The notes under the pieces are model-generated. The model made no database searches. It saw only the letters and a program-made list of their open reading frames with translations, and was not told the origin of the DNA. A stretch of DNA of 64,000 nucleotides, from the IMG/VR virus record IMGVR_UViG_3300031227_000026; one strand, written 5' to 3'. The first letter of the stretch is position 1. Each line of letters starts with the position of its first letter. Shown here piece by piece: positions 57,098 through 58,911 of this stretch. The translations under genes were made by a program, and so were the position numbers. The stretch comes from an uncultured virus (IMG/VR IMGVR_UViG_3300031227_000026) (Duplodnaviria; Heunggongvirae; Uroviricota; Caudoviricetes).

Positions 57098-57242
57098 GTA
57101 GGTGGCGCAGTGTTGTCTCTACGCCGCCCAACAAGTGGAGTTCTTATGGTTTGTGTCTGCCACTTGTTAATAATGGGACAACAAGCGTGTACTCTTGTTG
57201 TCCCAGTAGGCCGCATTCTTTGGGCTAAATGTTATGACCTAC
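57098..57242 (-). ncRNA. Chain of four abutting hairpins upstream of the polymerase
   Basis: Stems of 7-12 bp, e.g. TGGGACAACAAG/CTTGTTGTCCCA and AACAAGTGG/CCACTTGTT. Confidence 0.45.
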
Positions 57243-57267
57243 CTTGTATTATTGATTTTTCAATCAA

Positions 57268-57408
57268 TTACCGCCCACGCCCGCTTCCTTTGCCTTTTCC
57301 TACACCGCTCTTCGGTCTAGGTCCAGGTTTTGCTCCTGGACATTTTCCTCTCTGTCCACCGGTCTTTGCACCTTTACCTGCCGGCCCCGTTCCATCGCGT
57401 CTAGGCAT
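57268..57408 (-). CDS. 46-aa Gly/Lys/Arg-rich DUF5320-like protein (missed by the ORF track)
   Basis: AGGAG RBS; MPRRDGTGPAGKGAKTGGQRGKCPG... Confidence 0.7.
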   Translation of the reverse strand: MPRRDGTGPAGKGAKTGGQRGKCPGAKPGPRPKSGVGKGKGSGRGR

Positions 57409-57422
57409 CTCAATTCTCCTAT

Positions 57423-57508
57423 CCTATGCAGCAGTTGTTTACCTGATCCGGCGCCTACCAAGATGCCGGCCTTTTTGGGTGCGCCTACTGCGCCCACACC
57501 GCTATAGG
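57423..57508 (-). ncRNA. Unannotated 3-way-junction RNA candidate
   Basis: Closing CCTAT-AGCGGT/ACTGCT-ATAGG with hairpins TGGG-CGC/GCG-CCCA and CCGGC/GCCGG. Confidence 0.4.
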
Positions 57509-57582
57509 TGGTTGCTCAGCAAGGACTCGAACCTTAGTTACCAGAATCAAAGTCTGGGGTGCTACCACTACACTACTGAGCA
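57509..57582 (-). tRNA. tRNA-Gln(TTG)
   Basis: Cloverleaf; anticodon arm CCAGA-CTTTGAT-TCTGG; GGTTCGAGTCC; CCA end. Confidence 0.92.
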
Positions 57583-57584
57583 TT

Positions 57585-57684
57585 CGTGACGGGACAGGTT
57601 TTACTGTCTTTTATGCGATTGCGCAAATCACTAGTAAAGATGCCTTGGTCACATAAGTCTTTCACGTATTAAACGACCGCCACG
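57585..57684 (-). ncRNA. Unannotated multi-stem RNA candidate between two tRNAs
   Basis: Closing CGTGGCGG/CCGTCACG; inner GTGATT/AATCGC and GACAG/CTGTC. Confidence 0.45.
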
Positions 57685-57688
57685 TCGG

Positions 57689-57761
57689 CGGAGCGGGCGG
57701 GACTCGAACCCGCAATCTCCAGATCGACAATCTGGCGCTTTAACCTTTAAGCTACCGCCCT
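57689..57761 (-). tRNA. tRNA-Asp(GTC)
   Basis: CCAGA-TTGTCGA-TCTGG; GGTTCGAGTCC; A1.C72 mismatch; followed by CCG rather than CCA. Confidence 0.85.
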
Positions 57762-57762
57762 A

Positions 57763-57839
57763 TGGTAGCGGAGACAGGATTCGAACCTGCGACCCTCTGC
57801 TCCCAAAGCAGATGCTCCACCAAACTGAGCTACTCCACT
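57763..57839 (-). tRNA. tRNA-Pro(TGG)
   Basis: TCTGC-TTTGGGA-GCAGA; GGTTCGAATCC; CCA end. Confidence 0.9.
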
Positions 57840-57843
57840 GTCA

Positions 57844-57918
57844 TGGCGGGCAGAGAAGGAATCGAACCCCCATCTTCGGTTTTGGAAACCGAGGTTCTAC
57901 CAGTTAAACTATCTACCC
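57844..57918 (-). tRNA. tRNA-Trp(CCA)
   Basis: TCGGT-TTCCAAA-ACCGA; GGTTCGATTCC; CCA end. Confidence 0.92.
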
Positions 57919-57923
57919 TATAA

Positions 57924-58012
57924 ATGCGAAGAGGAGCAGGTGTCTCACCTGCCCAATCGGGGCCCGTGAAATTGGATTGGTGGTGACTTTAGCACCTATC
58001 CTAACTTCGCAT
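57924..58012 (-). ncRNA. tRNA-like 4-way-junction RNA candidate
   Basis: ATGCGAAG/CTTCGCAT closing stem; GGTG/CACC; CCAAT/ATTGG; T-arm-like GCAGG-TGAGACA-CCTGC. Confidence 0.5.
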
Positions 58013-58017
58013 CTAGT

Positions 58018-58082
58018 ACAAGCTCTGTCGGACTTTTACAGACCTGTCGTCACAGCCACTCTTTAAATTAGTGGTTGCTTGC
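58018..58082 (-). ncRNA. Small 4-way-junction RNA candidate
   Basis: GCAAGC/GCTTGT closing; CCACT/AGTGG, CTGT/ACAG and TCTGT/ACAGA arms. Confidence 0.35.
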
Positions 58083-58086
58083 TCTA

Positions 58087-58911
58087 TTACTCATCGGAAA
58101 TCCTTGTCCAATCTTTAACTACGTAACTAGGATACTCTAATAGAATATCACTTTCAAATTCATCGTTAGTAATTTCACCAGCGCACCAAGCTAATGCGCG
58201 TGTCATAAGACTTGGGCTAGTATGCTTTATGATATGCTCAATCATCTTAAAGATTTCCTGTCGTTTCCTATGATACTTTGCCGTCCCCTTCATCTTTGTT
58301 GGGGATACAGTAGCAGGAATCCCACGAGCTTTACCGTCTTTAAGTTTCTTTGCGGCCGAGAAACAAGCCTCTTTACCGAAGTTATTTAATACAGTATAAA
58401 GTTCTCGAACACCCCCTTGCACAATTGCACCAATTGCAAATTCAGCCTGAACTTCTTCTGGAAGCTCAAGAAGCATAAACCTAACTTGAACCCAACCACG
58501 AGATGTTCCAAGTTTCTCAGCGCATTCTTCTTGTTTGATTCCTAAATCCTTTAGCTTCTTTATTGCTTTTGCTTCCTGAACAATGTTGAGATCTTTGCGT
58601 TGAAGATTTTCTGCGAGATTGAACATTCTTGCAGATACTTCATCCATATGTTCATGGATTGTAGCGTGTATTGTTAATTTCTTTAAAACCTGATGAGCAT
58701 AATAACGTCTAAAACCAACAAGAAGTTTCCACTTTAGCCCTGTTCTTTCTTGCTCAACAGCATTGAACAAGCATACTGTTACAGGCTGTATCAAACCATT
58801 CTTCTCAATATCTTTAGCCAAATCAATAACATCAATAGGTGTAATTGCACCCCTACAATTAAATTCAGAATCGGCATCAATTTCATTAAGTGGGACTTCA
58901 ATAACTTTCAT
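58087..58911 (-). CDS. ParB/RepB/Spo0J-family protein
   Basis: LAKDIEKNGLIQPVTV, GFRRYYA, NLAENLQRKDL, HTH QEECAEKLGTSRGWV. Confidence 0.9.
   Translation of the reverse strand: MKVIEVPLNEIDADSEFNCRGAITPIDVIDLAKDIEKNGLIQPVTVCLFNAVEQERTGLKWKLLVGFRRYYAHQVLKKLTIHATIHEHMDEVSARMFNLAENLQRKDLNIVQEAKAIKKLKDLGIKQEECAEKLGTSRGWVQVRFMLLELPEEVQAEFAIGAIVQGGVRELYTVLNNFGKEACFSAAKKLKDGKARGIPATVSPTKMKGTAKYHRKRQEIFKMIEHIIKHTSPSLMTRALAWCAGEITNDEFESDILLEYPSYVVKDWTRISDE

Follow-up and report, generated by a model that had tools for sequence, protein, structure and literature searches.

What occupies the space between the transfer RNA (tRNA) genes of a phage, and does it have a shape and a fate of its own? The question is raised by a block of 1013 nucleotides (nt; 58086-57074, minus strand) in an uncultured virus of the Caudoviricetes (IMG/VR record IMGVR_UViG_3300031227_000026), of which a stretch of 64,000 nt, here called the window, was analysed. 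The block contains four tRNA genes, and the remaining non-coding space around them is occupied by four segments, here named elements A, B, C and D. In a preliminary description of the sequence these had been taken for an end-to-end array of novel, tRNA-sized structured RNAs, perhaps acting as tRNA mimics or as decoys for anticodon nucleases and other defences.

Elements A–D share layout, size range and style of folding with RNAs known from the tRNA regions of phages T4 and T5. With moderate confidence, we interpret them as the self-folding leader and spacers of one tRNA operon of the T4/T5 kind, which would be freed when the tRNAs are processed. The evidence from layout, folding and comparison is given below, together with four other explanations at the points where the data bear on them.

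Layout and folding of the spacers

The four tRNA genes were called by ARAGORN and by the Rfam tRNA model RF00005, and the two agreed (63.9-67.8 bits). The block is flanked by a ParB-like gene on one side and a family-A DNA polymerase gene on the other, and the four tRNAs and all flanking genes share one strand, the minus strand, on which nearly every long reading frame of the window is found. Read 5' to 3' on this strand, the order is A, B, tRNA-Trp, tRNA-Pro, tRNA-Asp, C, tRNA-Gln, D, a gene for a DUF5320-type protein of 46 amino acids (aa) and a row of hairpins. Folding was assessed by minimum free energy (MFE), with z-scores (z) computed against dinucleotide shuffles. The elements and tRNAs, in order of transcription, are:

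58018-58082, minus strand: element A, a closed three-hairpin domain of 65 nt (MFE -18.1 kcal/mol, z -2.0/-2.2)
58012-57924, stem extendable to 58015-57921, minus strand: element B, a rod-like hairpin (z -3.9, extended -4.95, with flanks -5.2), also recorded as inverted repeat I3
57844-57918, minus strand: tRNA-Trp (anticodon CCA), called by ARAGORN and RF00005 (63.9 bits), 3' CCA encoded
57763-57839, minus strand: tRNA-Pro (anticodon UGG), called by ARAGORN and RF00005 (65.3 bits), 3' CCA encoded
57687-57761, minus strand: tRNA-Asp (anticodon GUC), called by ARAGORN and RF00005 (67.8 bits), no encoded CCA
57585-57684, minus strand: element C, a closed domain of 100 nt (z -2.3/-2.4)
57509-57582, minus strand: tRNA-Gln (anticodon UUG), called by ARAGORN and RF00005 (64.1 bits), 3' CCA encoded
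57423-57508, minus strand: element D, 86 nt with a closing helix of 5 base pairs (bp) (z -1.3/-1.4, not above chance)

Neighbours within the block are separated by 0-5 nt, a tightness of tiling that is partly built in, because A–D were delimited as the contents of the spacers. The stop codon of the ParB-like gene is followed by 4 nt, A, 5 nt, B, 5 nt and tRNA-Trp, and tRNA-Asp by 2 nt, C, 2 nt and tRNA-Gln. D adjoins tRNA-Gln with no gap, starting at the base after its CCA, and leaves 14 nt to the ATG at 57408 that opens the small gene; these 14 nt include AGGAG, and D is read as the 5' untranslated region (UTR) of this gene. The element coordinates and the gaps of 0-5 nt in the preliminary description were borne out by ARAGORN, Rfam and the gene calls. 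Its term "tRNA-sized" applies loosely, the elements measuring 65 nt (A), 89-95 nt (B), 100 nt (C) and 86 nt (D) against 74-77 nt for the tRNAs.

In the MFE folds the ends of all four elements pair, and each element has two to three internal arms. Element A is closed by a 6-bp helix with one G-U pair, and its MFE structure makes up 48% of the ensemble. Element B has a closing helix of 8 bp, extendable to 11 bp, and forms a rod of 21 bp in total (11 + 4 + 6), interrupted by a 2-nt and a 1-nt bulge and capped by a small branched tip; it ends 2 nt before tRNA-Trp. None of 200 and none of 500 shuffles folded as well as extended B, and its apical part can fold in more than one way (MFE frequency 0.08-0.10). 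Element C combines an 8-bp closing helix (one G-U pair) with an 8-bp middle arm carrying a 30-nt loop and a 5-bp arm that abuts the closing helix. A global fold of the whole precursor of 1 kilobase (kb) was not used, as it mispairs the tRNAs themselves, though A and D persist in it.

Closure of the spacers was compared with 1500 same-length, same-strand segments of the phage, with the spacer limits taken from the gene calls and not from the ends given in the preliminary description; the closure statistics were picked after the folds had been seen. The spacer between tRNA-Asp and tRNA-Gln forms one domain with an 8-bp closing helix and 4 exterior unpaired bases, which was matched by 0.13% (2/1500) of genome-sampled 104-mers, and the closure of C was reached in 0.2-0.4% of composition-matched shuffles. 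The leader between the ParB-like gene and tRNA-Trp forms two closed domains with 8 of its 168 bases outside (matched by 3.8% of the 1500 controls), and the spacer from tRNA-Gln to the ATG was matched by 10.9%. Folding is thus clearly above chance for C and B, borderline for A and not above chance for D. The compact elements with terminal closing stems and two to three arms that had been described from the letters are therefore present in all four MFE folds, and the comparison with dinucleotide shuffles proposed as a check came out in favour of B (z down to -5.2) and C, left A at the border and went against D.

These figures bear directly on the explanation that the spacers are neutral filler, folding by chance from GC-richer non-coding RNA, with only the tRNAs and the small gene being of consequence. 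The proportions of controls as well closed as D and the leader are what it would predict, as are the modest z-scores of A, C and D (-1.3 to -2.4), the lack of homologues and the GC content of the block, which at 0.50 against 0.41 in the window favours folding. It sits poorly with the closure of C, rare among both the 1500 controls and the composition-matched shuffles, with the 0/500 shuffles that equal extended B, and with the same closure in five of the eight T4/T5 RNAs described below. We regard neutral filler as unlikely, while giving it some weight.

The strand on which the elements fold was also informative. One G-U pair is present in each of three of the four closing helices, and such pairs are valid only on the tRNA strand. 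On the plus strand, A and C fold worse (z -0.8 and -1.7, respectively) and B folds equally well (z -3.8 vs -3.9). Taken together, the G-U pairs and the poorer plus-strand folding of A and C agree better with RNA from the tRNA strand than with a palindrome in the DNA. Elements acting at the DNA level, as binding repeats for the ParB-like protein, as a replication origin or as miniature inverted-repeat mobile elements, would suit the location between ParB-like and DNA polymerase genes, the terminal inverted repeats in each element and the equal folding of B on both strands. The G-U pairs of three closing helices, however, are functional only in RNA from the tRNA strand. Neither iterons nor repeated copies were found in the block, the rest of the window or the other loci, the sequence of each element differs, and the block is missing from relatives that share the ParB and polymerase genes. 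Miniature mobile elements in particular were rejected, as no second copy was found in the block, the window or the fetched loci. A DNA-level role is accordingly considered highly improbable.

No terminator-like site was found inside the block on the tRNA strand by a consensus terminator scan, and a single weak promoter-like site was recorded at 58157-58129. The only spacer reading frame of at least 30 aa is one of 30 aa (57665-57573), which lacks a ribosome-binding site, enters tRNA-Gln and has no family match; it was rejected as a small gene on these grounds.

Some peculiarities of tRNA-Asp were recorded beside these results. Its first acceptor pair is A-C, flagged as non-standard, and its discriminator is followed by CCGA, where the other three tRNAs encode CCA. 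As read from the sequence, an alternative 5-bp hairpin (57692-57677, minus strand) could form between the end and trailer of tRNA-Asp (CCGCC) and GGCGG in the 5' strand of the closing helix of C. Such a hairpin would compete with the acceptor stem of tRNA-Asp and with the closure of C.

Comparison with tRNAs and with the stable RNAs of T4 and T5

Elements A–D were compared with known RNA families using Rfam 15 (4227 models). At gathering scores, no family other than tRNA was found in the window. A–D gave no match to the tRNA clan (CL00001) even at an expectation value (E) of up to 10 on a stretch of 1.4 kb (the gathering score of RF00005 being 29 bits), and the other weak Rfam matches up to this value either coincide in part with the tRNAs or score far under the cut-offs of their families. 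Ribozymes and riboswitches were rejected, there being no Rfam match. ARAGORN returned the same four tRNAs only in its standard, intron and mitochondrial modes and at an 80% threshold without intron mode. At 80% with intron mode two extra calls were obtained, with introns of 127 and 397 nt spanning real tRNAs, and the loosest mitochondrial mode gave 17 calls, also across coding DNA, which were treated as noise.

The geometry of the arms was examined in the same way. The 11 predicted hairpins have loops of 9, 4 and 9 nt in A, 8 and 5 nt in B, 5, 7 and 6 nt in C and 5, 4 and 8 nt in D. In none of them does a 7-nt loop stand on a 5-bp stem, the sole 7-nt loop being carried by a 2-bp stem, and no T-loop motif of the GTTCRANYC type was found in A–D. 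Compared with tRNA (RF00005), elements A, C and D are alike in their location in the cluster and in having a closing stem and three arms, whereas all of the defining tRNA features that were tested fail.

The nearest counterparts came from T4 and T5. Their stable RNAs form a descriptive class and not a sequence family, and eight were used here: rnaC, rnaD, RNA1, RNAI, RNAIII, RNAIV, rna2 and RNA2H. In T4, rnaD ("species 2 RNA") starts 1 nt after tRNA-Arg, and rnaC ("species 1") follows 6 nt after rnaD. In T5 (AY692264, misc_RNA features), RNA1, RNAI, RNAIII and tRNA-His follow one another at distances of 0, 4 and 0 nt, and RNA2H, RNAIV and rna2 are placed among other tRNAs. The T5 RNAs have reportedly been mapped by experiment. 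With the same folding script, five of the eight T4/T5 RNAs fold into one domain whose ends are joined by a helix of 5-12 bp, with no more than 4 exterior bases left unpaired (z -0.9 to -4.4), against a background of 21 such domains among 1500 random 104-mers of the phage studied here. Like the RNAs of this class, A–D are non-tRNA segments on the tRNA strand that abut their neighbours within a few nt and have paired ends (6, 11, 8 and 5 bp, respectively).

The likeness differs between the two phages. The T4 RNAs RNAC and RNAD are likewise non-tRNA RNAs on the tRNA strand, tiled behind tRNA-Arg, and rnaC folds as one closed domain (z -4.4/-4.6). They differ from A–D in their length (119-139 nt), in their position at the end of the cluster and, in the case of rnaC, in the presence of a tRNA-type T arm, which A–D do not have; they have also been shown to exist as RNAs, whereas the existence of A–D as RNAs is predicted from the sequence. 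The closed RNAs of T5 (103-172 nt, z -0.9 to -2.8) are, in layout and fold, nearest to A–D of everything compared. They differ in the T-arm sequences still present in RNA1 and rna2 and in the GCCA at the end of RNAI, marks which A–D are without. No sequence similarity of A–D to the T4/T5 RNAs was found by blastn against 50,697 phage records.

One source assigns RNAC and RNAD to the T4 tRNA region and gives their roles as unknown (PMC3014915), and another reports the detection of both by RNA sequencing, plus a Northern blot with an RNAC probe, and likewise gives their function as unknown (PMC9697503). In layout and fold, A–D belong to a kind that has been known from T4 and T5 for decades and is still unexplained functionally.

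One explanation that gives A–D a more active part is that they are trans-acting small RNAs, either regulators or tRNA-shaped decoys for anticodon nucleases or other tRNA-directed defences. Their closed ends would give stable RNAs. A, C and D have the outline of a four-way junction, with the 3' arm of A and of C set right against the closing stem in the manner of a T arm. T4 rnaC and the T5 RNAs RNA1 and rna2 are partly tRNA-like and carry T-arm sequence, and the function of the known T4/T5 RNAs is described as still open (PMC3014915). The tests above speak against it: no tRNA-clan score at E<=10, nothing from relaxed ARAGORN, no T-loop and none of the 11 hairpins with the 7-nt loop on a 5-bp stem. 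Nor was conservation seen in the searched collections, and D is absent from the nearest modules in which tRNA-Gln precedes a DUF5320-type gene. A trans-acting role is therefore judged distinctly unlikely. A more specific form appears more doubtful still: here A–D would be discrete, long-lived products of the tRNA-processing machinery that act in trans, perhaps by titrating processing enzymes or tRNA-directed nucleases of the host, or in concert with the small basic DUF5320-type protein, whose gene stands immediately behind a tRNA in several unrelated phages. If true, it would make the block a small RNA-protein module for counter-defence or for the tuning of translation, and would offer the first functional handle on phage "stable RNAs".

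The same tests bear on whether A–D could be relics of decayed tRNA genes that have kept a cloverleaf-like outline. Their location in a tRNA cluster and the closing stem and three arms of A, C and D would agree with such an origin, and the T-arm sequences kept in T4 rnaC, T5 RNA1 and T5 rna2 show that decay or derivation of this type occurs. Against it, A–D have no residual tRNA score and no ARAGORN call at the 80% threshold, and blastn showed no similarity to the tRNAs of the window itself or to about 60 others from the phage loci fetched. Decay should moreover break pairing, not preserve closing helices of 8-11 bp. This origin is considered very unlikely.

On the points raised by the preliminary description, Rfam, relaxed ARAGORN and loop geometry agree that A–D carry no canonical tRNA pattern, and the proposed Rfam search gave no match of A–D to a known RNA family. 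Mimicry of tRNAs or a decoy function received no sequence support (Rfam at E<=10, ARAGORN, loops and T-loop all negative), and a novel kind of small RNA is not indicated, as the T4/T5 stable RNAs share the layout. The co-processed array is upheld in form by the tRNA strand, the lack of an internal terminator-like site, the paired ends and the T4/T5 layout. The observation was thus partly confirmed, and its interpretation was right in form and unsupported as to mimics or decoys.

Searches for relatives of the block

Comparative sequences were sought in collections of phages, viruses, metagenome contigs and genome contigs. With the whole block as blastn query, the phage collection yielded matches to the tRNAs only. 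When A together with B, C, and D plus the downstream sequence were used as queries (word size 11, E<=1) against the 50,697 phage records, one 25-nt chance match in a tail-fibre gene was obtained. Scans of IMG/VR with an exact 28-mer of B, a pattern for the tRNA-Pro/tRNA-Asp junction and 25-mers of tRNA-Gln and tRNA-Trp returned contig G001 only, which is the same phage (block 100% identical, 1 mismatch in about 12 kb). A pattern for the architecture tRNA-Asp, C, tRNA-Gln gave no match in the metagenome contigs and none in the genome contigs, and the 25-mer of tRNA-Trp gave none in the genome contigs.

Covariance models were run against 29 viral records. That of C gave a best match at E 0.2 (14 bits), and that of B gave nothing, its own site in G001 scoring 129 bits. 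Local blastn of A–D against the fetched loci and the rest of the window, which covered the T4 locus (L014) and not the T5 locus (L044), gave chance-level matches only. A class-level test of inter-tRNA spacers was dropped, with six usable spacers in the viral loci, several of them holding a DUF5320 gene. Salt-lake metagenome runs were found to contain sequence of the phage (16 runs, none of them listed as RNA). Four DNA runs yielded identical low-depth fragments of the block and unrelated tRNA look-alikes, and no natural variation was seen in them.

Relatives were found through the flanking genes. A protein search of IMG/VR with the ParB-like protein identified four relatives at 47-50% identity, none of which has a tRNA between the ParB and polymerase genes or any similarity to the block. 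The polymerase protein found itself only in IMG/VR and had no match in the metagenome contigs. The tRNA block is therefore specific to this lineage among the compared relatives. In one of the four (47% ParB identity; L004:4855-5771), frames of 232 and 72 aa lie between the ParB-like and DNA polymerase genes.

A processing model and the genes around the spacers

If A–D are the self-folding parts of a tRNA operon, the block of 1 kb (58086-57074, minus strand) would constitute one accessory transcription unit, inserted in this lineage alone. Co-transcription would produce a single precursor consisting of the leader (A and B), three tRNAs, spacer C, the fourth tRNA, the UTR D, the small gene and the terminal hairpins. 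RNase P would cut the 5' end of each tRNA, and 3' maturation would trim each 3' end. Since the ends of the elements are paired, compact RNAs would be released wherever the precursor is cut at the border of a tRNA.

Element B may have a further part in this processing. Ribonuclease III (RNase III) acts on about two turns (~20 bp) of near-continuous double-stranded RNA, and by this length, which may not be that of the host enzyme, B alone would qualify, the closing helices of A, C and D (5-8 bp) being too short. In the leader of T4, an 11-bp hairpin lies about 9 nt before the first tRNA (tRNA-Gln), and here the 21-bp rod B lies 2 nt before tRNA-Trp, being longer than the T4 hairpin and branched at its tip. 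The T4 hairpin is presumably the site of an RNase III cut. B is likely a candidate processing stem of the RNase III type, as judged from its modelled length and position. In T4 itself, E. coli RNase III participates in tRNA maturation (PMC4810235).

According to the operon model, an enzyme of the RNase III type would cut rod B just upstream of the first tRNA and so free the tRNA part from the upstream message, on which A would be left as a folded 3' end. C would be released with overhangs of 2-4 nt on its 8-bp helix; a short overhang on a closed helix should make it long-lived, as expected from the general behaviour of 3' exonucleases. D would stay on the messenger RNA of the small gene as its 5' UTR, and its ending at the ribosome-binding site of a real gene was counted in favour of the operon reading. 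Self-closure would keep the spacers from pairing with tRNA halves and present the junctions to the processing enzymes, and it is in cis that it most plausibly serves. The excised pieces, with paired ends and overhangs of 0-5 nt, may nevertheless persist as small stable RNAs, as do T4 RNAC and RNAD and T5 RNAI, RNAIII and RNAIV.

Several results weigh against this interpretation. Homologues of A–D were found in none of the collections searched, and hence no pair is backed by covariation. The absence of the whole block from the relatives indicates that it is dispensable for this phage group. The statistics of D are not above chance and those of A are borderline, only modest z-scores were obtained for A, C and D, and B, C and D have no well-defined fold in their inner or apical parts (MFE frequencies 0.06-0.10). 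The closure statistics carry the weakness of a choice made after the fact, and the high GC content of the block flatters the elements when they are set against genome-sampled controls; B and C nevertheless come out ahead of composition-matched shuffles as well. The RNases of the host may follow rules other than the length applied to B, and exonucleolytic trimming of the 3' end of tRNA-Gln could be impeded by a stem that follows its CCA immediately.

The remaining features of the region, by coordinate, are:

58950-58087, minus strand: ParB-like gene (Pfam ParB_N and HTH_ParB; PHROG "ParB-like partition protein"), stop at 58087
57268-57408, minus strand: gene for the 46-aa Gly/Lys/Arg-rich protein, last of the block (Pfam PF17253, AGGAG ribosome-binding site)
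57098-57240, minus strand: row of four hairpins (MFE -53.2 kcal/mol, z -5.7, 0/200 shuffles as good), also recorded as inverted repeat I1
57073-54668, minus strand: family-A DNA polymerase gene, from Pfam and PHROG searches

The hairpin row (57098-57240) lies between the small gene and the polymerase start and includes a 12-bp perfect stem. It was not called by the consensus terminator scan, there being no U run after the 12-bp stem. These hairpins are likely transcript-end or processing structures. Two adjacent stems of the row (57240-57098) have ACAAG/CUUGU in common, and alternative pairing between them would be possible. A 159-aa frame on the plus strand (57110-57589) was rejected as a gene, as it is antisense to the Gly-rich gene and has no family match.

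The small gene was assigned to PF17253 at 30.6 bits (gathering score 27, E 8.2e-7), a match which covers only positions 1-49 of the 99 of the profile. Thirteen short homologues (45-75 aa) have a conserved N-terminal motif with a single invariant Cys, and this DUF5320 motif is invariant across 14 short homologues. A Gly/Arg/Lys-rich protein of DUF5320 type, 28-83 aa in length, is encoded in 27 other viral loci (IMG/VR; L016-L042, open reading frame at 2501 on the plus strand). Since nearly all of these loci have a strong ribosome-binding site and their codons differ, the conserved unit is a protein and not an RNA motif. No PHROG match was found for it, and mentions of DUF5320 in the searched literature were not about phages.

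An association of this gene with tRNAs extends beyond the window. In 8 of the 27 loci tRNAs are present within 2.5 kb. The start codon follows the end of a tRNA by 22-47 nt in 6 of the 27, and three of these 6 (L023, L027 and L032) have a further tRNA beginning about 8-10 nt downstream of the stop. In the window, L042 and L017, the tRNA in front of the gene is a tRNA-Gln(UUG) or a Gln-like one. The gaps between this tRNA and the gene in L042 and L017 (31 and 46 nt, respectively) hold no D-like sequence, which weakens the case for D as a conserved part of the module.

The Gln-like tRNA of L017 (L017:2378-2454, plus strand) was reported by ARAGORN with an undetermined two-letter anticodon; it resembles tRNA-Gln(UUG) and has a 6-nt anticodon loop. 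It abuts a tRNA-Leu and stands 46 nt upstream of the DUF5320-type gene, in the same position as the normal tRNA-Gln of the window and of L042.

Seen as self-folding segments of a tRNA operon, elements A–D add an unrelated salt-lake phage to those with the T4/T5 design, in which end-paired segments are tiled against tRNAs. The shared design suggests that spacers in phage tRNA operons must, as a rule, fold on themselves, rather than that a special RNA family is present. Taken alone, this instance is a weak one, with no homologues in the collections searched and no covariation. A fresher lead may lie in the DUF5320-type gene, which recurs in phage tRNA arrays immediately after a tRNA.

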